The notes beneath the pieces were generated by a model. The model was not told the DNA's origin and searched no databases. It saw nothing but the letters and a program-made list of their open reading frames with translations. From assembly GCA_020437585.1 (NCBI GenBank), contig JAGQWG010000001.1:216577-280576 (forward strand): DNA of 64,000 nt, written 5' to 3'. Numbering within the stretch: the stretch's first letter is position 1; each line of letters opens with the position of its first letter. The position numbers and the translations under genes are program-made. Source of the stretch: Ignavibacteriota bacterium. GTDB taxonomy: Bacteria > Bacteroidota > Ignavibacteria > Tepidaquicellales > Tepidaquicellaceae. Below are positions 609-44,578 of this stretch, one piece after another.

Positions 609-1571
609 TTAAAAATTGCCAAAATCATTGGATTCTTCTCTTAGTTTTATCAACTCCTCTTCTGTAAGAATCTTTGAATACTTCCCCGGATTGTTTAGTA
701 CATCACTATATGTCAAAGGACTACCGTCGGACTTAGTAAATTTTTGATTATCGTGTCCGGTAAATCCTGTTGACTCTATGCTTCTTGTAAAAAGAGCTTT
801 CGGAGGAAGCTTGTCAATAAATTTCATACATGCGTCTAGATTTTCTTCTGCAAATTCCCTAATCTCACCCTCCTGGGCAGGGACTATTTTCGCTTGGGCA
901 ATCGCCGATTTAAGCAATATATCTGTTGCCTTAGTTTTGTAGATTTTTACTTCATTTTGCAATTGTGTATAAACAGAATGAAGTTTTTTGGCAAGCTTTT
1001 CTTCTGTTATTCCTTGATCTAGCTCAACTCCGACCCCCAATGCAAATTCCAAGATTTTTTCCATTTTATTGTTTTTATTTAAATTGTTACCTGATTTTAT
1101 TTCTTTTCGAGACATTGAATAAAGTATTTTCCCAGCTACCAATTCCGGATTATAATTTCTATCCCTCTCGGTAAATTCAAGTGCAGGAAGCCCTGCTACA
1201 GCAGGACGGTTTGTCAATGCAACAGCAACCAGATAGAGACAATCTTTAAATGGTTCATAATTAAGCTTACCAAGCTCAATCGAACACCGTCTGTACTTTT
1301 TTGAATTAACCAATTTAATTAGGTCATCATCTAAGTGTGAAAAAGATGCGTACAACTTATCTCCGATCACCATTAGAGCTTCGACCCAGCCGTAGGCTTT
1401 TGGTTCTTCCGAAGAAGATGAACTAGGATGGCCTATCCATATAGGCGCTTCATAAACTGCAGGATCATAACTTTGAGCGATTTGCTCCAGTTCCATTGCG
1501 GTTACCGTCCCCTGTGGATATTGTCCCGCAGTAAAAACATGAAAGAATTTTTTGTTGTGGTAGTTTAACAT
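609..1571 (-). CDS. Phage capsid scaffolding protein / prohead protease, P2 GPO family
   Basis: GTVTAMELEQIAQSYDPAVYEAPIWIGH aligns by eye with recalled P2 gpO GRVISAQDIQEMAETFDPRVYGCRINLEH. CLYLVAVALTNRPAVAGLPALEF aligns with KCYLVGLAVTDDPASLGTEYLEF. The C-terminal half is coiled and charged. Confidence 0.75.
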   Translation of the reverse strand: MLNYHNKKFFHVFTAGQYPQGTVTAMELEQIAQSYDPAVYEAPIWIGHPSSSSSEEPKAYGWVEALMVIGDKLYASFSHLDDDLIKLVNSKKYRRCSIELGKLNYEPFKDCLYLVAVALTNRPAVAGLPALEFTERDRNYNPELVAGKILYSMSRKEIKSGNNLNKNNKMEKILEFALGVGVELDQGITEEKLAKKLHSVYTQLQNEVKIYKTKATDILLKSAIAQAKIVPAQEGEIREFAEENLDACMKFIDKLPPKALFTRSIESTGFTGHDNQKFTKSDGSPLTYSDVLNNPGKYSKILTEEELIKLREESNDFGNF

Positions 1572-1577
1572 AGTGAT

Positions 1578-1637
1578 GCAATTTATAATATGAAAATCAT
1601 TTTTCCAAATACTAAAAGGTTAGATACGTATCTATAC
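1578..1637 (-). promoter_or_regulatory. Palindrome-box promoter copy 1, proximal promoter of the scaffold-capsid operon
   Basis: Palindrome TAGATACGTATCTA at 1621-1634. On the minus strand, TTTG at 1609-1606 starts 18 nt after the dyad centre, and TAAATTGC at 1585-1578 follows 20 nt later. The scaffold ATG is at 1571. Part of a 37-bp direct repeat (1601-1637). Confidence 0.55.
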
Positions 1638-1667
1638 TTTTTTTATCTTTTGATTAGAACAAGGCAA

Positions 1668-1727
1668 CCAATTTAATAAAAGAAAAATCAGTTTCCAAAT
1701 ACTAAAAGGTTAGATACGTATCTATAC
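1668..1727 (-). promoter_or_regulatory. Palindrome-box promoter copy 2, distal tandem promoter
   Basis: Palindrome at 1711-1724, minus-strand TTTG at 1699-1696 and TAAATTGG at 1675-1668. Spacings are the same 18 and 20 nt. The 36-bp repeat 1692-1727 is identical to 1602-1637, with a 90-bp period. Confidence 0.5.
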
Positions 1728-1808
1728 ATGATTTTCAAAAATTATTATTATAGCAGTACTAATTTTTAAACTGATCACTAATCCAAGAAAGTAAATTGTG
1801 ATATGAAT

Positions 1809-1873
1809 AAAAAGTATAGATACGTATCTAACCCTTTTCTCTTTGCAATCGAAATTTTCATACTATATATTTG
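1809..1873 (+). promoter_or_regulatory. Palindrome-box promoter copy 3, promoter of the portal-terminase operon
   Basis: Palindrome at 1817-1830, TTTG at 1842-1845 (18 nt after the dyad centre), and TATATTTG at 1866-1873 after a 20-nt spacer. TATATTTG fits the Bacteroidota TAnnTTTG -7 consensus. The first gene's ATG is at 1905. Confidence 0.6.
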
Positions 1874-1904
1874 TATCGGTTTTTAAATCAAATCATACTA
1901 CCGC

Positions 1905-2291
1905 ATGCAAAAAGAAATTAGAGATAAACTTATCTCCCTGCTTGACGAAAGCCTCCCATCTATTACAGGTAAAGTTACTCGCTACCGAGGAGAGTTTGAA
2001 AAAGACTCCCGATGGAATCCGGAATTTCCTGCCTGCTTTGTTTTTCTTAAAGGATTCAACAAAGACATTGAGGGTACATACGGAGAAACACTTAAAAAAG
2101 GTTACTCCTTTCTTATTTATATTGCTGATCGAGATGATTGCGCTTCTCTGGCTGAAGAAATCTACAACACTCTGGATGGACTACAGATCGACATAGATGG
2201 AGATTTTTATAAATTGAACATTCGTTTAGTAAAACTTCTTGGATTTTTATATAGTGTTGATGTCTATACTATTGAATTAACAATAACCTAA
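1905..2291 (+). CDS. Phage protein, Mu gp37-like (DUF1834-like) head/tail joining candidate
   Basis: 128 aa. The pattern GKVTRYRGEF...FPACFVFLKG...FLIYIA...LDG resembles recalled DUF1834 proteins. First gene of the plus-strand phage operon. Confidence 0.45.
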   Translation: MQKEIRDKLISLLDESLPSITGKVTRYRGEFEKDSRWNPEFPACFVFLKGFNKDIEGTYGETLKKGYSFLIYIADRDDCASLAEEIYNTLDGLQIDIDGDFYKLNIRLVKLLGFLYSVDVYTIELTIT

Positions 2292-2317
2292 TTTTATTAA
2301 CCTATAACTACCATAAA

Positions 2318-3754
2318 ATGGAATTAATTAATAAACTTAAGCGGTCCATTTCAGATTCCTTAATAAAATTCGCTGCTGATAAAAAACCTTTATCAATGAA
2401 TCCTGCCATGGATAGTAAAGTTGTACGTCATGGAGGATTTAGAAATGTATTTAGTTTGTACACGGAAGAATTCTCTGGGCTAACGGCATATAATATAAAA
2501 CATTATTTTGAGGCAGCAAGGAAGGGCTTAAATTTTTTTAAAGCTGCACTCTTTGAAGATATTAAAAGAAAGGATATGCAGATCGGAGGTGTCTGTCAAT
2601 CTAGAAAGCTTGGAATAACAGGCAGATATAAACTGAACAGGATCGAAAACTTTGTTCATTGCAATGATGAAGGTATGAAAGCCTTTGTTTTAGAAAATTT
2701 TTCCAAAATAAATTTACCTGCATTCTTTTCTGATGTTGTAGATGCAAGTGTAACAGGAGTAAGTAATTTCGAGATAATATATAGGACAAATGGGAATAGT
2801 ATAACAATTGATAAAATACAGAAAATCCCAAATGAATTGATTGTATATGATGAAGGGGGCGACAGATATCTTTACCTTTCCCCTGAGGAAAGGGACATAT
2901 TTAAATTAAGAAGCTTGACTGCCTCAGCTTATAGTGGCTTCGATGATCGACTTGATATCAGTAAACTATCTCTTATTGAACTACCTGAAGAAAAAGTTCT
3001 TGAAGTTCATGCGCTAGATGGAAATGCGGGTAATGGATTAATGAACGGATGTATAGATGCTCTCATATGGGCTTTCTTTTTCAAAAGTTACCTTATAAAA
3101 GATCTGGCAACATTCCTGGAGCTTTTCGCTATCCCCGCGATTATTGGGAAGTACGACCCCTTAATGAGCCGGGAGGACAGGGTTAAGTTCGACACAGCAA
3201 TCCGTGATTTTGGCAATCATTTTAGGATGGTAATGAGTAAAGATGCGGAAGTAGAATTTGTAACTGATACAAATAAAGGAAGTTCCAATGAAATATATCA
3301 CCGCACTCTTGAATACTGGGATAAAAAAATAGCCATCCGGATCCTGGGGCAAAACCTCTCAACTGAAGTTGACTCTGGAAGTTACGCAGCAGCGCAGGCA
3401 CATAGTATTATTAGAAATGATTTCCTTATCTCTGATATGATTCTATGTGAATCAGCAATGAATACCCTGATAAAAAAGGTAATAGACTTGAACTTTAGCA
3501 ACCCTAAAGTTTACCCGAAGTTCGAATTTCCTGAAACTAAATCCTTGGAAGACAAAAAGATGCTAAGCGATATATACAGTTCCCTCAGCAGTTCAGGCTA
3601 TCACCTGGACAAAGAAGAAGTATCTAAAGAACTTGGCATAACAACAACTCCTCAATCTGAGATAATTAGTAAATTAAGAGACCTTACTAAGGATCACTCG
3701 AGAAACGGAGAAATGGAGAAATTCTTGACTGATACTCTTGAAGAAACTATCTAA
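2318..3754 (+). CDS. Phage portal protein candidate (Mu gp29 / DUF935-like)
   Basis: 478 aa, a portal-typical size. It sits between head-completion-type genes and upstream of the terminase. Family assignment is from recall and not verified. Confidence 0.55.
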   Translation: MELINKLKRSISDSLIKFAADKKPLSMNPAMDSKVVRHGGFRNVFSLYTEEFSGLTAYNIKHYFEAARKGLNFFKAALFEDIKRKDMQIGGVCQSRKLGITGRYKLNRIENFVHCNDEGMKAFVLENFSKINLPAFFSDVVDASVTGVSNFEIIYRTNGNSITIDKIQKIPNELIVYDEGGDRYLYLSPEERDIFKLRSLTASAYSGFDDRLDISKLSLIELPEEKVLEVHALDGNAGNGLMNGCIDALIWAFFFKSYLIKDLATFLELFAIPAIIGKYDPLMSREDRVKFDTAIRDFGNHFRMVMSKDAEVEFVTDTNKGSSNEIYHRTLEYWDKKIAIRILGQNLSTEVDSGSYAAAQAHSIIRNDFLISDMILCESAMNTLIKKVIDLNFSNPKVYPKFEFPETKSLEDKKMLSDIYSSLSSSGYHLDKEEVSKELGITTTPQSEIISKLRDLTKDHSRNGEMEKFLTDTLEETI

Positions 3755-3778
3755 TTGACAATCTAAACCGATAAACAA

Positions 3779-4198
3779 ATGGCATACTCTACACAAGAAG
3801 ACATACTAAAACGTATTAGAAAGCGCGAGCTTGACAAACTGATTGAAAGTCTGGACGGCGAACCTGATTCCGCCGACATCCTGACTGAGGCGATCTCGAC
3901 CGCCGATAGTATAATCGATGGATATCTAAAAAGCGTCGTAAAGGCACTCCCTCTGACGGAGGTTCCCGAGGCAGTCATTGACTGTTCAGCAAACATTGCA
4001 ATCTACATTCTTCACTCTCGCATACAATATCACGATGTACCTGAATTTTGGAAGGAAAGATACGATAACTGCATCTCATATCTGAAGGATGTTTCAAAAG
4101 GTCTGGCCAATATAGAGACAACTATAAACGAGGATGACCAGCAGGATAGCTTAAAAGCCTACTCAAATGAGAATGTTTTTAATAGGAATCTGTACTGA
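3779..4198 (+). CDS. Phage head-tail connector-like protein (Mu gp36 / DUF1320-like)
   Basis: 139 aa. YSTQEDILKRI...AISTADSIIDGYL...LPL...IAIYILHSR...ERYDNCISYLKDVSKG matches the recalled DUF1320 pattern. Its stop overlaps the terminase ATG (TGATG at 4196-4200). Confidence 0.6.
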   Translation: MAYSTQEDILKRIRKRELDKLIESLDGEPDSADILTEAISTADSIIDGYLKSVVKALPLTEVPEAVIDCSANIAIYILHSRIQYHDVPEFWKERYDNCISYLKDVSKGLANIETTINEDDQQDSLKAYSNENVFNRNLY

Positions 4199-5535
4199 TG
4201 GAAATAACAAGTCTTAATGATCTTCTTCCAAATTATAAATCTCTGCCTGCTTTAGAAAAGTGGCACATGTCAGATCACCTTGAAAAAGGGATAAAAGGTG
4301 GAGTTAGAAGCGGGAAGACATATGCACTAATGGCTGAGGCGTTATACCTTGCATACTGTAACCGCCCGTTTTTTCATTTATCTCTCTCTCCATCATTTGA
4401 TAATGCATGTGATACTGTTGTCGTTGTTTTGGAAGAACTCTGTGTTCGAAATAAATTGGAATACAGATGGATAAAATCAAACCGAACATTTCAATTCTGG
4501 CTTGAGAATGATAAAGATAACCACGCAAATATCCTCATTTACGGCTCGGAAATGTCGTTTAAAGGCATTACTGCCGCGTCCGGCGATATAAACGAACCCT
4601 TCTCAATTCCAAAAAAGAATATCCTGATTTGGTGGGAAAGAATATCACATCCGGAAGCCGCACGGCTCGTTCGCCTCTGGGGAGGAACCGCCGAACCCGA
4701 CAAGATGCAGTGGGGATGGGAGTATTGGGAAAAGGAGGAAATCAAAAATGATGATTCTTATATAACCACCATCACCACATATGACAATATCCATCTGAGT
4801 GATGACTACAAAAGACGGCTGGAGGATAAATACGATAGTCGTATGCGTGAGGTTTATATGATGGGTAAGAACATAAACCTATCAGCTGACCGCGCTTACT
4901 ACGCTTTTGATACTGAAAGATCTGTTGTGAAACAAAGCCAGGTGCAAACAACCAAAATTATCATCGGCTTCGATTTCAATGTGGATCCTATGTGCGCAAT
5001 AGAGTTAATCATAGACGAAGATGTTCGAACTCAGGTCGATGAGTATGTAATTCATTCCTCAAATACAGGTGAACTCTGTGAGTACATTATTATGCGACTT
5101 TTACAAAAATACAATCGGGAAGATATTACATTGATCATCACAGGTGATGCGTCAGGCAGGGCTTTGAAGACCGCTAGCTTCGGTAGAACGGATTATATGA
5201 TCATAAAAGAAGCATTCGAGAGAGCAGGATTTAGCTTAGATTTATATATCCCGAACAGTAATCCTCCCGTCCGAGATAGGATAAACTTTACTAATAAACT
5301 CTTTGAAACGGGTAAATATCTGATAACAGAAAATTGTAAGCAGTCAATCAAAGACCGGGGTCTCGTAACATGGAAACAGGGAACCGACGGCTTCATTATA
5401 GATAAATCGCGTCGGGACATATCACATTTATCGGATGCAGGAGATTACGCACTTTGGGCTAGCAAAAAAGTTGAAAATAGTGAACAGGATTACTTTACAA
5501 TTCAGCAAATGGGAAAAGCAAGGGAGTACCTCTAA
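4198..5535 (+). CDS. Phage terminase large subunit
   Basis: 445 aa. N-terminal Walker A GGVRSGKT. C-terminal nuclease-like half with acidic motifs (IIIGFDFNVDP, LIITGDASG). Translationally coupled to the upstream phage gene. Confidence 0.8.
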   Translation: MEITSLNDLLPNYKSLPALEKWHMSDHLEKGIKGGVRSGKTYALMAEALYLAYCNRPFFHLSLSPSFDNACDTVVVVLEELCVRNKLEYRWIKSNRTFQFWLENDKDNHANILIYGSEMSFKGITAASGDINEPFSIPKKNILIWWERISHPEAARLVRLWGGTAEPDKMQWGWEYWEKEEIKNDDSYITTITTYDNIHLSDDYKRRLEDKYDSRMREVYMMGKNINLSADRAYYAFDTERSVVKQSQVQTTKIIIGFDFNVDPMCAIELIIDEDVRTQVDEYVIHSSNTGELCEYIIMRLLQKYNREDITLIITGDASGRALKTASFGRTDYMIIKEAFERAGFSLDLYIPNSNPPVRDRINFTNKLFETGKYLITENCKQSIKDRGLVTWKQGTDGFIIDKSRRDISHLSDAGDYALWASKKVENSEQDYFTIQQMGKAREYL

Positions 5536-22094: not shown

Positions 22095-23039
22095 ATGAAG
22101 ATTGCAAGAGACCTTAACGAAGTAGAATTTGACAGGAAAAGCGCGGTAACAGTAGGCACGTTCGACGGTGTACACCTGGGACACAGACAGATAATTAATG
22201 AGTTAAATAAAGTAAAAGAGGACAAAGGATTAAGAAGTGTTGTAATAACATTCGACCCGCATCCTCAAATCGTTCTTAGAAATAAAGCTAAAGACATAAA
22301 GCTTTTAAACACAACAGAAGAGAAACTGGATCATTTTCGTGAGCTCGACATAGACCTGGTATATATCATAAACTTCACCAAAGAATTCTCACAAACACAT
22401 GCAGTCGATTTTTACAAGAACTACCTTATAAACGGGGTAGGGCTGTCCGATTTGGTTCTCGGCTATGACCACATGTTCGGCAAGAACAGGGAAGGTAACT
22501 TCGAAACCCTGAAGGAACTAAGCAGTGAATACGATTTCGAAGTACACAAGATAGATGAATTTGCGCCGGGCGGTGAGCATGTAAGCAGTACGGACATAAG
22601 ACACGCTCTCGACTCAGGGGATATTCCCAAAGCATACAGGCTTCTCGGAGAGCGGTTTTCTATCACAGGTACAGTGGTCCACGGTCACAAGAAAGGACGG
22701 GAACTTGGTTACCCGACTGCTAATATTGAGCTTGATTCACATTTTAAGCTTATCCCAAGACTCGGCATTTACGCCGTTCAGGCTGAACTAGAGGGTAAGA
22801 GATACTTCGGAATGATGAGCATTGGATATAACCCGACGGTTACCGATGAAAAGCAGTTGAGAATAGAAGTTCACATTTTCGATTTTGACGAAAATGTTTA
22901 CGGCAAGAAGATAAAGATAAATCTTCTTGAATATCTCAGGGAGGAAAAGAAGTTTGATTCCCTGGATGAATTAATAAAAGAAATGAATTCCGATAAGGAA
23001 AAAACATTATTAATAATAGAAAAACTAAAGAATAACTAA
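22095..23039 (+). CDS. ribF: Bifunctional riboflavin kinase / FMN adenylyltransferase
   Basis: TVGTFDGVHLGHRQ, FDPHP, GYDHMFG, VVHGHKKGRELGYPTAN and GMMSIGYNPT. The start is moved to the in-frame ATG at 22095 because the track ORF overlaps the peroxiredoxin gene. Confidence 0.9.
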   Translation: MKIARDLNEVEFDRKSAVTVGTFDGVHLGHRQIINELNKVKEDKGLRSVVITFDPHPQIVLRNKAKDIKLLNTTEEKLDHFRELDIDLVYIINFTKEFSQTHAVDFYKNYLINGVGLSDLVLGYDHMFGKNREGNFETLKELSSEYDFEVHKIDEFAPGGEHVSSTDIRHALDSGDIPKAYRLLGERFSITGTVVHGHKKGRELGYPTANIELDSHFKLIPRLGIYAVQAELEGKRYFGMMSIGYNPTVTDEKQLRIEVHIFDFDENVYGKKIKINLLEYLREEKKFDSLDELIKEMNSDKEKTLLIIEKLKNN

Positions 23040-23055
23040 ACATTTAAAGAATTAA

Positions 23056-23328
23056 ATGGGACTAACAACAGAAGAAAAAAAGGAGATCATCACCAAATTT
23101 GGTAAGAATGAAAAGGATTCCGGAAAGCCGGAAGTTCAGATCGCTATCTTAACAAAAAGGATAAAGGACCTCTCCGCCGATCATTTCAGCAAACACAAAA
23201 AAGACCATCACTCAAATACAGGTCTTCTTAAAATGGTAGGTAAAAGAAGAAAACTCCTGAGATATCTGGAAAACACAGACATCGAAAGGTACAGAAAGGT
23301 TGTAAAAGACCTCGAACTCAGAAAGTAA
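23056..23328 (+). CDS. rpsO: 30S ribosomal protein S15
   Basis: 90 aa. [49 protein letters not shown]. Confidence 0.95.
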
Positions 23329-40644: not shown

Positions 40645-41454
40645 TTATAATTTTGGCAGATAATTAATTAACAATTCATTGTTGTTTGAAATAATTGCCG
40701 AATTGATAAGGAAATACTTCCGTAGATTCTCTTCCGTAATTATGTCATGTGTTTTGCCCGCGAATACCAGCTTCCCTTTGTCTAGCAGCAAGGTCTTATG
40801 AGTATATTTTAGAGCGAGGCTAAGGTCATGCATCACAACCATTATCGTTAGTCCTTTTTCCGAATTTAACTTATGCAATATCGAAAATATCTCATGCTGG
40901 TAATTTACGTCAAGGTATGTCAGCGGTTCGTCAATGATCAATACTTTTTCCTTAAGATCTTCTTTTAAATTCAATTGCACCAATGCAAGAGTAATTAGAA
41001 CTTTTTGCCTCTCACCTCCCGAAAGCTCGGAAATTTCCCTGTCCCTAAAATCCATAATACCTGCCACATCCAGCGCTTCACTTACAACCGATTCATCCTC
41101 CTCATTATACCTAAATTCCGAAAAATTCTTGTAAGAGTATCTTCCCAATAACAGAAAATCTTTTACGGTTATCTTATCCGTAAGCATTATTCCGGACTGA
41201 GGGAGGTAGCATAAGCCCCTTGAAAGAGTCTTCCTTTCATATTCTGCTATATTCTTATCTTTAAAAATGATCTTACCACTTGTATTAGTGTGGATCCCCG
41301 AAAGCAGTTTTACCAAAGTTGATTTCCCGGAGCCGTTCCTGCCGATGATCGAAACGAATTCACCTCCACCAATAGAAAAGGAAACATCCTTAAGAGCGAA
41401 CCTTTCATTGCCGTAGGAAAAGCTAATATCTTCTGCTCTAAGTATCTCACTCAT
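40645..41454 (-). CDS. ABC transporter ATP-binding protein (FecE/BtuD-like)
   Basis: Walker A GRNGSGKST, signature LSGGERQ and Walker B LIIDEP. No permease or binding protein is adjacent. Confidence 0.8.
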   Translation of the reverse strand: MSEILRAEDISFSYGNERFALKDVSFSIGGGEFVSIIGRNGSGKSTLVKLLSGIHTNTSGKIIFKDKNIAEYERKTLSRGLCYLPQSGIMLTDKITVKDFLLLGRYSYKNFSEFRYNEEDESVVSEALDVAGIMDFRDREISELSGGERQKVLITLALVQLNLKEDLKEKVLIIDEPLTYLDVNYQHEIFSILHKLNSEKGLTIMVVMHDLSLALKYTHKTLLLDKGKLVFAGKTHDIITEENLRKYFLINSAIISNNNELLINYLPKL

Positions 41455-42767
41455 TAGTAGAATACCTCGGATTTAGTTTCGCACAGCACAGGTTTTATAC
41501 CGTCTGTTTCGAGAAGGGTTACTTTTTTTATCATGTTTTCATCGGCAAATTTGGGATCGGCTTTTACCCTTATATAATTCGTCGTAAGTCCTTCCCTGTA
41601 GCCGTCTTTCACAGATTCAAATAATACATCCTGCTCCGTCCCAACAAACCTGCTGTAAAAGTCAAATCTCTTTTTATCGGACAATCTCCTTAGTATATGA
41701 CTTCGCTTTTTCCTCACTTCCATGTCCACGCTTCCCGGCATCACAGCCGCATCGGTATCGCGTCTCTCTGAGTAAGAAAATACGTGCAGGTAACTAATAG
41801 GAAGTTCGTTAAGGAAATTATACGTGTTTTGAAACCTTTCTTCAGTCTCACCCGGAAATCCAACAATAACGTCTACACCAATACCAACATCCTTTATCTC
41901 ATCATTCAGTCTGTGTACGAGGTCACGGTAGTATTCCTTCTTGTACCGGCGTCTCATGCCCTGCAGCGTCTCCGCGTCACCGCTCTGAAGCGGTATATGG
42001 AAGTGGTTGCAGAACTTATCCGACGACTTTGCAAAGTCTATTATCTGCTGGTTCACAAGATTAGGCTCGATCGAACTTATTCTAATTCTCTTTATATCCA
42101 GTTTGTCCAACTCATACAGCACGTCCACCAGCCTGTACAATCTTCCATTTTGATATTTATAGTCACCTGTATTAACTCCTGTTAGAACAATCTCCTTATA
42201 CCCTGAATCAATCACCCTCTTCGCGTTGTCTATTACTTCGTTTATCGGCTGGCTTCTTGACTTGCCTCTTGCAAGCGGTATCGTGCAAAACGAGCATTTG
42301 TAATTACATCCATCCTGTATCTTCAAAAACGCGCGAGTGCGCGAATCAATGTCCGCAGAAAAGGCAAAATGGAAATCATTTACTTCCTCGATAGGGGAAC
42401 GGTAAATACATGACGGCTCGCCTTTTTCGAAGCTATCTACATAGTCGAATACTTTGAACTTTTCCTTTGCGCCTAGCACAACATCCACGCCCTCGATCGA
42501 AGCAATCTCGCCCGGTTGTAACTGCGCATAGCATCCTGTAACGATCACATATGTTTCCGGATTATTGCGGAGTATGCTTCGGACGATCTGCCTGCATTCC
42601 TTATCGGCGTTATTCGTCACGGAACAGGTACTGAGGACAAATATATCAGATTCATCACCATATTCCCGTATCTGGAAGCCCCGCGTTTCGAACTCCTTTG
42701 CCAATGTGGAGGTCTCGCTGTAGTTCAGCTTGCATCCTAATGTATGTAATGACACACTTTTAGCCAT
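41454..42767 (-). CDS. mtaB: tRNA methylthiotransferase, MtaB-like radical SAM enzyme
   Basis: N-terminal LHTLGCKLNYSET, radical SAM CNYKCSFCTIP, and a C-terminal TRAM-like domain. Confidence 0.8.
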   Translation of the reverse strand: MAKSVSLHTLGCKLNYSETSTLAKEFETRGFQIREYGDESDIFVLSTCSVTNNADKECRQIVRSILRNNPETYVIVTGCYAQLQPGEIASIEGVDVVLGAKEKFKVFDYVDSFEKGEPSCIYRSPIEEVNDFHFAFSADIDSRTRAFLKIQDGCNYKCSFCTIPLARGKSRSQPINEVIDNAKRVIDSGYKEIVLTGVNTGDYKYQNGRLYRLVDVLYELDKLDIKRIRISSIEPNLVNQQIIDFAKSSDKFCNHFHIPLQSGDAETLQGMRRRYKKEYYRDLVHRLNDEIKDVGIGVDVIVGFPGETEERFQNTYNFLNELPISYLHVFSYSERRDTDAAVMPGSVDMEVRKKRSHILRRLSDKKRFDFYSRFVGTEQDVLFESVKDGYREGLTTNYIRVKADPKFADENMIKKVTLLETDGIKPVLCETKSEVFY

Positions 42768-42840
42768 AGGAGGAAATTTACTAAAAAAGTAATGGAATTT
42801 TAAGGCTTAAATATAGCATTCGGATTGCTATCATAATGAT

Positions 42841-43257
42841 GGAGCCGGATAAGCGGTTCTTCCGGCTGAGCCTCTGACTTTCGCTTCATTCCTTTCCCCG
42901 GGTGAGGATCGGGAGGTGAGGGAAGCTACACGCCCAAGCCCGCCTACATTTAACTTATTTACTCTTCCATAAGCGGTTTCCCGCCGGTGGGTTGATTTAA
43001 AGGACGGTAAGATTCCTCACTTTCTGTACCAATTTACGCATGTTCCAAGTATGGGTTGATTTAAAGTTCGGCGGCAACACTTTTAGTTGTTGGTGACGGT
43101 TCACTTTGTTCACCTAAAACACCAACAACGGCGTTACGGTGTGTTGTCCCATTTTACACATGTTCTAATCCCGTCAAGGACGGAACGCGGATTGTACTTT
43201 CTAAGAAGAAAGCATACCGCTTGTAGGTTGATTAGGTCGGGACGAATCCCGCCTTAA
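42841..43257 (-). ncRNA. Candidate structured ncRNA of unknown family, or a ~490-nt structured 5' leader of mtaB
   Basis: 570-bp gap with no ORF of 60 aa or more on any frame, and visibly more GC-rich than its flanks. Perfect 10-bp stem GTTGTTGGTG (43086-43095) with CACCAACAAC (43120-43129). 7-bp stem AGCCGGA/TCCGGCT (42843-42867). 5' UUCG hairpin. Repeated modules GGGTTGATTTAAAG x2 (plus one degenerate copy) and TTTACRCATGTTC x2. The strand is chosen because a conserved promoter points into it. Confidence 0.5.
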
Positions 43258-43262
43258 ATAAG

Positions 43263-43327
43263 GAAATATAGGGTGAGAAAAGAATGAAAGCAAAGAGAAA
43301 AGGGTTAGATACGTATATATACTTTTT
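43263..43327 (-). promoter_or_regulatory. Palindrome-box promoter copy 4 (orphan), pointing into the structured region
   Basis: Minus strand reads AAAAAGTATATATACGTATCTAACCCTTTTCTCTTTGC, matching 1809-1846 at 37 of 38 positions. TTTG (43294-43291) lies 18 nt after the dyad centre. TATATTTC (43270-43263) follows a 20-nt spacer. Confidence 0.6.
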
Positions 43328-43339
43328 TTTCTACTAACT

Positions 43340-43765
43340 CTATTGCTCTAGTTTAGCTTCCAAATATCCTTTCAGGCTTTTTTCAAGAATACTTGTCCAA
43401 CCAGCTTCGAAGTTCTTCCTGTCAAATTCAGGTTTATCCGGGAATGTCTCCAATCCGGAATGGGTAAGAACCAGTTTTGTCGAGTCACCTTCAGGGAACA
43501 GCTCCCATGAGACATACGATATTCCGGGTTCGCCGTCATATCTCCAGCTGTATACAAGTTTCTTCCCCGGTATCACTTCTATCACTTCACACAGATGAAG
43601 GAATAGTTTATCTTTTTCTCCGGCTGTAAATTCGAACCTGAAACCTTCCTCAGCAATAAACTCTTCCAGGTCAAAATACCATTCCTTCATTTCCTCCTTA
43701 CCGGTTATTGCGCTCCATACCTCCGACACAGGAGCATTTAATGTTATTTCTTTTATCAGTTGCAT
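43340..43765 (-). CDS. SRPBCC superfamily protein (AHSA1/START-like)
   Basis: 141 aa. The pattern VWSAIT..EEMKEWYF...F.F......KLVYSW...T.L.LTHSG is typical of this family. Confidence 0.7.
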   Translation of the reverse strand: MQLIKEITLNAPVSEVWSAITGKEEMKEWYFDLEEFIAEEGFRFEFTAGEKDKLFLHLCEVIEVIPGKKLVYSWRYDGEPGISYVSWELFPEGDSTKLVLTHSGLETFPDKPEFDRKNFEAGWTSILEKSLKGYLEAKLEQ

Positions 43766-44172
43766 TAAGCCTCCGCAACTTCCTTTAGTTTAGCAAGTTT
43801 CTCATCCCAGCCTTTGTTGTGTCCTTCTGACATGCTTTCACCCAGTGGTCCTATATTTTCCCATCCAGTGTGTGTCAGCGTCAGATCCGTTTCTCCATTT
43901 CCTTCCAACTCAATGGATACTTCACTGTCACCTTCAAATTCCGGTAAACGCCACGTGTAAACAAGTTTCTTGTTCTCGACAAGTTCTTTAATTGTGCAAT
44001 TAATTGGAAAAGGTCCCTCGCCCATATCCCCGGTGAAGGCAAAAGACTTTCCCACCTCTGAGACAAAATCATTCGGCATCAGCCATTGGGCAAGCTGCTC
44101 AGTATTGATCAAAGCCTGCCATACTTTCGATACCGGTGCATTTATGTGAACTTTCTTTTCGATCTTTTTCAT
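43765..44172 (-). CDS. SRPBCC superfamily protein (AHSA1/START-like), paralog
   Basis: 135 aa. VWQALINTEQLAQWLMPNDF...KLVYTW...LTLTHTGW. Abuts its neighbours by 1-4 nt. Confidence 0.7.
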   Translation of the reverse strand: MKKIEKKVHINAPVSKVWQALINTEQLAQWLMPNDFVSEVGKSFAFTGDMGEGPFPINCTIKELVENKKLVYTWRLPEFEGDSEVSIELEGNGETDLTLTHTGWENIGPLGESMSEGHNKGWDEKLAKLKEVAEA

Positions 44173-44498
44173 TTCTCTTTTTCTATATAATTTTTTAGTG
44201 AAATTAGTTTGTCATCCCAGAACCTATCGAAGTACTGAAGCCACTTGTTCACTTCCTTCAAAGGTTTCGCATTTACACGGTAATACCTTTCCCGTCCGTC
44301 ACGCCGCGGTACCACCAATTTTGATTCCTGAAGTATCCTCAGGTGTTTTGATACCGCCGGACGGCTAAATTTAAAGTGTCCGGCTATATCATTTACCCGC
44401 ATCTCTTTTTCGGTTAGCATAGTCAATATTTGTCTCCTGCTCGAATCTGCCAGCGCATTGAATATAATATCTATATTTCTATGAGAATTTTTAATCAT
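44169..44498 (-). CDS. ArsR/SmtB family transcriptional regulator
   Basis: IFNALADSSRRQILTML....MRVNDIAGHFKFSRPAVSKHLRILQESKLV. Start is placed at the ATG at 44498. The upstream part of the track ORF is taken up by operator-like dyads. Confidence 0.8.
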   Translation of the reverse strand: MIKNSHRNIDIIFNALADSSRRQILTMLTEKEMRVNDIAGHFKFSRPAVSKHLRILQESKLVVPRRDGRERYYRVNAKPLKEVNKWLQYFDRFWDDKLISLKNYIEKEK

Positions 44499-44502
44499 AA
44501 TT

Positions 44503-44545
44503 GGTAACTTTTCGGTTACACAAAGATACGTAACTTTTTGGTTAC
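44503..44545 (-). promoter_or_regulatory. Two GTAAC-N6-GTTAC dyads, candidate ArsR operator
   Basis: GGTAACTTTTCGGTTAC (44503-44519) and GTAACTTTTTGGTTAC (44530-44545) lie directly upstream of the ArsR ATG. Confidence 0.5.
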
Positions 44546-44578
44546 TTGTCAAGTAGAAAATTATGCTATTAGTGGGAT

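Follow-up and report, generated by a model that had tools for sequence, protein, structure and literature searches.

A unit that joins a copy of a prophage promoter to folded non-coding sequence is located in the 64,000-nucleotide (nt) stretch of contig JAGQWG010000001.1 from an Ignavibacteriota bacterium (positions 216,577 to 280,576; here called the window). This element lies on the minus strand between mtaB, an MtaB-type radical-SAM gene (41454-42767, minus strand; Pfam UPF0004 and Radical_SAM), and an operon of an ArsR gene and two SRPBCC genes (43340-44552, minus strand), of which the SRPBCC gene at 43340-43765 is directly upstream. The whole unit (43329-42843, minus strand; ~487 bp) consists of the promoter and a presumed non-coding, multi-helix transcript of ~415 nt with 48% GC (42843..43257), the start and 3' end of which are both putative. 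Our tentative reading, held at slightly less than even confidence, is that the element is a discrete and recently acquired unit, in which a copy of a portal-operon promoter would produce a structured RNA belonging to the regulon of the phage cluster and not acting as a regulator of mtaB. A young, lineage-specific RNA gene with ties to the prophage is thus its probable identity. If the RNA is real and acts with the cluster, it would represent a clear example of a phage regulon that extends to a non-coding RNA gene located far away on the host chromosome.

The promoter connects the element with the phage genes. Positions 43327-43290 (minus strand) match positions 1809-1846 (plus strand), which form the promoter box of an operon encoding a 128-amino-acid (aa) protein, Portal_Mu, Gp36, and the large terminase (1905-5535, plus strand), at 37 of 38 positions (E = 1e-13) and with identical spacing. 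An earlier sequence-only reading of the window had proposed that the element uses the same palindrome-box promoter as the phage head and packaging operons 41 kb away, and this match bears the proposal out; the promoter of the element was likely derived from that of the portal operon. The box (GTATATATACGTATCTAACC; 43303..43322, minus strand; consensus TAGATACGTATCTA) contains an imperfect 14-bp palindrome (TATATACGTATCTA; 43319-43306), which is the putative site of a dimeric regulator and is centered at approximately -55. It is followed by a core promoter of the Bacteroidota/FCB (Fibrobacterota-Chlorobiota-Bacteroidota) type (43263..43294, minus strand), comprising a -33 TTTG (43294-43291), a 20-nt spacer, and a -7 element (TATATTTC; 43270-43263), and transcription would start at approximately 43257 ± 3. 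Promoters of this -33/-7 type with TTTG are known from Bacteroidota; here, the core promoter is accompanied by an upstream dyad site. An alignment of four copies from the source genome and seven from related organisms revealed one layout common to all 11 promoters (five organisms), i.e., the palindrome box, 8 nt, TTTG, 20 nt, and TAnATTkn. The element itself has every part of the corresponding box-promoter pattern (GTATAkATACGTATCTAACC, 8 nt, TTTG, 20 nt, and a TAnnTTTG-like -7 element). Between the two haplotypes of the element described below, the spacer alone differs within the core promoter, with its length kept and the motifs intact in both. The signature GTATAKATACGTATCTAACC-N8-TTTG-N20-TANNTTTG (palindrome-8-TTTG-20-TAnnTTTG) represents a searchable mark of the regulon in Ignavibacteria.

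Four copies of the box, all facing a promoter, were found in 74 kb of the source genome, with no others there. The three phage-side copies occupy the divergent region between the protease group and the portal operon, 41 kb from the element. In addition to the portal-operon box, they include two tandem box promoters (1644-1618 and 1727-1708, spanning 1618..1727, minus strand) that face the head protease/scaffold gene (609-1571, minus strand), which is followed by major head, holin-like, and tape-measure genes outside the window. The cluster (window 609-5535 with L091 10001-20963) has a counterpart in contig L103 (6049-13423; portal 77% identical). NUDIX-ruvB adjoins it in both cases, with the boxes perfectly conserved, and this shared position suggests that the cluster is old and vertically inherited, possibly domesticated or split. 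The identical 20-mer box also occurs in three contigs of a related organism (L087 to L089) as well as in L103, and L104 carries a variant.

The sequence behind the promoter differs in composition from its surroundings. The GC content of 42841-43257 is 48.4%, compared with 38.8% for the window, 39.4% for coding DNA, and 23 to 31% for other true intergenic regions; the sequence-only reading had noticed this by eye, and it is the strongest intrinsic anomaly of the element. As also claimed there, the gap between mtaB and the SRPBCC gene has no open reading frame (ORF) of at least 60 aa in any frame (longest, 56 aa on the plus strand and 38 aa on the minus strand). A six-frame Pfam scan of the element gave nothing credible, comparison of the haplotypes revealed no conserved small ORF, and tblastn searches of the element found no trace of the cluster proteins or of the two proteins (DUF899 and SnoaL2) encoded at this position in a relative (L099); a decayed protein gene or pseudogene was ruled out by these Pfam and tblastn negatives. 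The element is single copy in the 74 kb of the source genome and in ~1.7 Mb of related loci, and neither terminal inverted repeats nor target-site duplications were seen beyond a 79%-complementary 19-mer pair, which ruled out a miniature inverted-repeat transposable element or a repetitive extragenic palindrome-like repeat.

The predicted fold favors the minus strand. Its folding z-score is approximately -2.7 to -3.1 in the window and -3.8 in the version carried by the strain L093, compared with -1.5 for the plus strand, and reading the minus strand yields approximately 16 predicted G-U pairs that the plus strand lacks. The presumed transcript (all of the following features being on the minus strand) would begin with a hairpin, P1 (AGGCGGGA-UUCG-UCCCGACCU; 43234..43254), which is invariant and has a predicted pair probability of 0.96 in both haplotypes. 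A central domain (42943..43227) follows, closed by a predicted long-range helix, P2 (CCUACA at 43227-43222 with UGUAGG at 42948-42943), and containing the predicted helices P3/P3a (43220-43187), P4 (43186-43168; two G-U pairs), and P6 (a GAAA hairpin at 42990-42967), all of which come out independently in the predictions for the two haplotypes. The same domain holds a variable 79-nt hairpin cassette (43067..43146) with a perfect 10-bp stem (GUUGUUGGUG/CACCAACAAC) and a CAACAC/GUGUUG helix. A multi-stem 3' domain (42843..42941) includes a C-rich tract (42941-42868) and ends in a terminal hairpin (AGCCGGA-11 nt-UCCGGCU; 42867-42843) with no U-tract after it. The 10-bp stem (43086-43095 with 43120-43129), the CAACAC/GTGTTG helix enclosing it, and the 7-bp hairpin with an 11-nt loop at 42843-42867 had all been described before and are indeed present. 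The stem is moderately unusual, given that 13 of 1,000 dinucleotide shuffles produce one of this length. A pseudoknot proposed between the loop of the terminal hairpin and the 5' end found no support; it relies on a 7-nt ACCGCUU/AAGCGGU match, approximately five of which are expected by chance in 415 nt, and the 5' partner is, with a predicted probability of 1.0, already engaged in a local helix.

Superimposed on this fold is a set of repeats, recovered at or beside the positions given in the sequence-only reading. ATAAGCGGTT and TTTACRCATGTTC are each present in two copies, and TGGGTTGATTTAAAG occurs in two copies plus one degenerate third. Module 1 (UUUAAAUCAACCCA) has exact copies at 43065-43052 and 43001-42988 and a degenerate copy (CUAAUCAACCUA) at 43234-43223; each copy leads into the 5' strand of a predicted helix, and the module is absent from the rest of the window and from the loci fetched. 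Two copies of module 2 (GAACAUGYGUAAAWUGG; 43165-43149 and 43045-43029) flank the cassette, and their cores (ACAUGUGU) are able to pair with each other; where the window has an A.C mismatch within this module, the L093 type has an A-U pair, owing to a C-to-U change at 43038 (columns 95/222). None of 1,000 dinucleotide shuffles reaches either the longest exact direct repeat (15 nt) or the number of repeated 10-mers (seven). The repeats are short modules in otherwise unrelated sequence, and an ancient 120-nt tandem duplication was ruled out, self-alignment at any offset being no better than that of shuffles. Module 1 resembles the translation-start motifs CUUUAAA and CUACCAC of the cluster. The gene starts of the cluster share CTTTAAA and/or CTACCAC repeats just before the ATG (window 1875-1907 and 2290-2317; L091 10960-10994; gene starts of L103, L104, L185, and L186).

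Within the Ignavibacteria, only one species-level cluster carries the element. It is lacking in the nearest GTDB species (L001; MtaB 89% identical) and in a relative from the Joint Genome Institute (JGI) metagenomes (L099; MtaB 90% identical), whose sequences become homologous to the window again from 42812 and approximately 42842, respectively, such that these element-free relatives keep the last 45 to 75 nt before mtaB. In L099, an ArsR-SRPBCC-SRPBCC-DUF899-SnoaL2 array extends to 87 nt before mtaB. Five strains with 97.7 to 98.4% identical MtaB (L093, L094, L095, L097, and L098) carry the element including the box. In these strains, a PQQ_2 gene takes the upstream place that the ArsR/SRPBCC genes occupy in the window, and homology starts exactly at the box. 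Because homology starts at the box and resumes near mtaB, the unit can be delimited as 43329-42843. Close relatives carry alternative gene sets in the small flexible islet that precedes the element or mtaB, namely ArsR and two SRPBCC genes (window 43340-44552), a PQQ_2 gene (L093 2283-3431), or ArsR, two SRPBCC, DUF899, and SnoaL2 genes (L099 1675-3913), and the islet ends exactly at the box.

An analogous RNA exists in relatives. The box scan of JGI metagenomes identified the three contigs L087, L088, and L089, all from one related organism. The L087 box is followed by a 330-nt, ORF-poor, well-folded region (z = -3.5) and then a lipoprotein gene, which is the layout of the window element. This region is homologous to gaps in phage operons, i.e., the Portal_Mu/Gp36 gap of L103 (E = 1e-38) and the gap between Gp36 and the next gene of L185 (E = 1e-33). 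The shared sequence, which we refer to as RNA X (L087 1545-1266, minus strand; L103 11326-11624, plus strand; L185 2304-2609, plus strand), is ~290 nt long and has no Rfam match. RNAalifold applied to the three sequences yielded 82 pairs, of which 13 have changed on both sides, and hairpins have been swapped for other hairpins; with 13 compensatory pairs among only three sequences, RNA X is a genuine structured RNA. It is embedded in the portal-adaptor-terminase operon in L103 and L185; in L087, it lies at a host locus, preceded by a box promoter of its own. It shares with the element the clade, the phage-like cluster, and (in L087) the box promoter, and it likewise combines a 5' hairpin with a long-range helix that closes a multi-hairpin domain in which hairpins change their sequence yet stay hairpins. 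Unlike the element, it is backed by compensatory changes, and it is shorter. Homology between the two was rejected, given that nhmmer --max with the three-sequence profile found nothing at E ≤ 100 in 1 kb around the element. RNA X is absent from the window and from L091, and the operon in the window has no corresponding gap.

A different structured RNA accompanies the same operon or the same promoter in relatives, which makes an RNA of the phage cluster more credible than a leader of mtaB. The sequence-only reading had offered both, a stand-alone non-coding RNA or an mtaB leader of ~490 nt; of these, the separate unit is the better supported, and the leader has become less likely. Under the leader hypothesis, which we regard as unlikely, the box promoter would be a second, regulator-dependent promoter that gives the mtaB-ABC-ECH-DUF192 operon a long structured 5' leader, acting perhaps by attenuation and never released as a separate RNA. 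The arrangement allows for this, as the element is directly upstream of mtaB on the same strand with no terminator-like site found, and the two other non-phage boxes of the related organism also aim at same-strand host genes located 330 to 500 nt away. However, mtaB has an upstream region of its own outside the element (42768..42842, minus strand) with a -7-like sequence (TAAATTTC) ~9 to 16 nt before the ATG. This promoter-like region lies within ~45 nt of the ATG and is conserved in element-free relatives. A -7-like TAAATT motif, 10 to 17 nt before the ATG, is kept in all relatives, including those that lack the element, from which it follows that mtaB has its own promoter and that the element was added at this locus. 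The element matches no riboswitch or leader family, the L087 counterpart RNA X is also found inside phage operons, where it cannot act as a host-gene leader, and the tRNA-modification operon itself has no evident link to head assembly.

The main null model, to which we likewise give a low probability, is a non-functional or selfish mosaic assembled from a duplicated operon promoter and phage intergenic leftovers and drifting in a flexible intergenic spot. The patterns of variation argue largely against it. The two haplotypes are ~98% identical outside the cassette, with six to eight scattered differences, and the first 114 nt and last ~90 nt of the presumed transcript are invariant between them. 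In L093, L094, L095, and L097, the 79-nt cassette (43146-43067) is replaced at the same site by an unrelated 69-nt hairpin (CCCCCCUUUAACAAAGGGGGG...) with identical flanks. Outside the cassette, 6 of 336 nt differ, compared with 43 of 708 third codon positions of mtaB and the ABC gene (Fisher p = 0.0015), so that divergence is significantly below that of neighboring synonymous-type sites, and the absence of any difference in the 5' 114 nt is itself significant (p = 0.002). Among window-type strains, the element is identical even though the flanking genes differ at 16 to 47 sites. The intact promoter motifs of both haplotypes and a GC content far above that of local intergenic DNA point in the same direction. 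Other features are those expected of a mosaic, including the restriction to one species-level cluster, the rearranged neighborhood between strains, and modules that resemble translation-start regions of the cluster and are each followed by an ORF of 3 to 15 codons. Similar GC-rich hairpins occur in the operon gaps of relatives, one of which has a CCCCCCUUU..AAAGGGGGG motif like that of the L093-type cassette. Differences between strains are also locally clustered. L093 and L094 differ from L095, L097, and L098 at three sites in 9.3 kb, all of them inside the element (probability by chance, ~9e-5) and within 63 nt of one another; these single-nucleotide polymorphisms correspond to window positions 42972, 42964, and 42910 (L093 3796, 3804, and 3858). 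The ends of the element are constrained, and its middle is a local substitution hotspot.

Several other observations weigh against an RNA gene of the phage regulon. Not every box drives a structured RNA, as the L089 box precedes a stretch of ~500 nt that is AT-rich and unstructured (z = -0.3) and leads to a transaldolase gene. The low divergence could reflect recent recombination instead of selection. The minus-strand z-score reaches only the 5th percentile when set against 124 genomic windows of equal length. Of the 123 predicted pairs, three vary outside the misaligned cassette, each on one side (A.C/A-U, G-U/G-C, and C.A/C-G), and the two ~98% identical haplotypes contain no compensatory double change. 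The resemblance of the modules to the 5' untranslated region of the operon is weak, with 9 of 308 genomic control chunks scoring as well. No terminator-like site was found in 42600-43500, and transcription might read through into mtaB. Finally, the element has no detectable homology to RNA X, to Rfam families, or to sequences in phage, plasmid, and viral collections.

Two further roles find little support. A function at the DNA level, such as a pac-like packaging-initiation site, a transcription-primed replication origin, or a recombination site with the repeats serving as protein-binding sites, is very improbable; the three direct, irregularly spaced copies of a 13- to 17-bp motif, the hairpins, the adjacent promoter, and the variable gene content just upstream would suit it, but folding and G-U pairing are strand asymmetric, terminal inverted repeats and target duplications were not seen, the motif occurs neither in the phage cluster nor elsewhere in the 74 kb of the genome, and no recombinase or small-terminase gene is adjacent. 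That very small peptides are translated from the AUGs located 12 to 21 nt after each AAUCAA module, as in the operon genes, is extremely improbable, given that these ORFs have just 3, 4, 14, and 15 codons and no Pfam signal, that one of them is 15 codons long in one haplotype and 47 in the other, and that another has a non-synonymous change.

If the element is an RNA gene of the phage regulon, a dimeric regulator bound to the TAGATACGTATCTA palindrome would turn on the head and packaging operons and the element together. The element would yield a structured RNA acting as RNA and in trans, its transcription, 3' end, and trans action being predictions of this scheme. Its fold would form a stable scaffold in which a single hairpin can be exchanged freely, and three A/U-rich, single-stranded modules resembling the translation-start regions of the cluster may be displayed on it. 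From this display of three modules, we infer that the RNA may serve as a scaffold or sponge that binds several copies of one partner, such as a protein or the ribosome. The functions put forward in the sequence-only reading, as speculation, were a decoy or sponge, a packaging or assembly cofactor, and a defense trigger.

Known systems offer parallels for the promoter and for the RNA. Late promoters with activator sites include the C-dependent Plys, PI, PP, and Pmom of phage Mu and those of P2 and P4 activated by Ogr/Delta, including those of the satellite P4 itself. As in these phages, the dyad site here lies just upstream of the -35 equivalent and is common to several head-gene operons, with a copy also found outside the phage proper, and the head genes here are of the Mu type (Portal_Mu, Gp36, and a Mu-like protease). 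The core promoter differs from that of Mu and P2/P4 in being of the Bacteroidota/FCB type (TTTG/TAnnTTTG), and the putative regulator here may be either an activator or a repressor. The pRNA of phi29 is likewise a phage-associated structured RNA tied to the portal and terminase, a tie that may be provided by the promoter for the element and by the operon position for RNA X; it differs in its size (120 to 174 nt), its three-way junction with interlocking loops, its early promoter, and its lack of an Rfam match here. GOLLD and ROOL are, like the element, large, GC-rich, multi-helix, ORF-free RNAs, often found in prophages, with peripheral helices that vary. They are longer (580 to 830 nt), widespread, often located beside tRNA genes, and supported by covariation, whereas the element is ~415 nt long, is restricted to one species cluster, and matches neither Rfam model. 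The CsrB/RsmZ sponge RNAs share with the element a structured scaffold showing repeated short single-stranded motifs; their motif is GGA, whereas that of the element is UUUAAAUCAACCYA in three copies, and the likeness concerns a possible mode of action rather than identity.

A broader and rather improbable extension, made by analogy, is that the element and the unrelated RNA X are interchangeable trans-acting RNAs of head assembly or DNA packaging in a vertically inherited Mu-like, possibly gene-transfer-agent-like particle. They would then represent pRNA-like cofactors outside the phi29 group, with the RNA gene either lying within the portal-adaptor-terminase gene set or relocated to another site, where a duplicate of the operon promoter precedes it. 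If the RNA of the element is real and acts with the cluster, it would, together with RNA X, suggest that the portal-terminase modules of some Mu-like elements carry a structured RNA partner. It would also offer a natural experiment in RNA turnover, in which sister lineages have different RNAs in a constant context and behind a constant promoter.

The element belongs to no known family, although in kind it resembles known prophage-associated structured RNAs. As the sequence-only reading had supposed, no family match was obtained for either haplotype. Rfam 15 (which covers, among others, RNase P, tmRNA, 6S, SRP, pRNA, GOLLD, ROOL, OLE, HEARO, and the SAM riboswitches) gave no match in the whole window at gathering thresholds and, at E ≤ 10, only chance-level matches below 19 bits to 42700-43400 and the L093 version; ARAGORN found neither a tRNA nor a tmRNA. 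A bacterial RNase P was considered on account of a P4-like pair (AAGCGGU/AGAACCGCUUAU) and rejected, with no bacterial model matching at E ≤ 10 and the sole RNase P line being a 16-bit, AT-rich match to the Plasmodium model outside the element. Also rejected were an attC-like or CRISPR-repeat-like reading of the GTTG...CAAC hairpin, which lacks the core sites, is single copy, and is swapped out in relatives, and an antisense action on a target in the phage cluster, for which complementarity is not above chance. Blastn of the element against phage and plasmid collections returned nothing, and scans of IMG/VR with four element-derived patterns, the box, and an RNA X-derived pattern returned nothing or chance matches inside genes. 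Neither nhmmer of the element against 80 mtaB loci from Ignavibacteria and Bacteroidota nor a survey of 80 IMG/VR loci of portal relatives (for the element, RNA X, and the box) had any positive result.

Some minor observations concern the contigs compared and the genomic background. In L103, a 7x long-read contig, the capsid and tail genes are located away from the protease gene, and the portal gene is split into two ORFs, possibly as a result of sequencing errors. The gap between the 127-aa gene and the portal gene of L186 (3864-4380; 517 nt), a more distant relative, contains tandem repeats of the GGTCTTTT(T)GAGGTCTTTTTTGGGGGT type. In the related organism, the L088 box lies before a protease homologue, and the third non-phage box (L089 1097-1613) has CTAG instead of the -33 TTTG. 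Of the 124 background windows used for the folding comparison, the lowest z-score (-5.8) belongs to 22661-23075 (plus strand), which lies inside a 347-aa ORF upstream of rpsO (23058-23327) and pnp.

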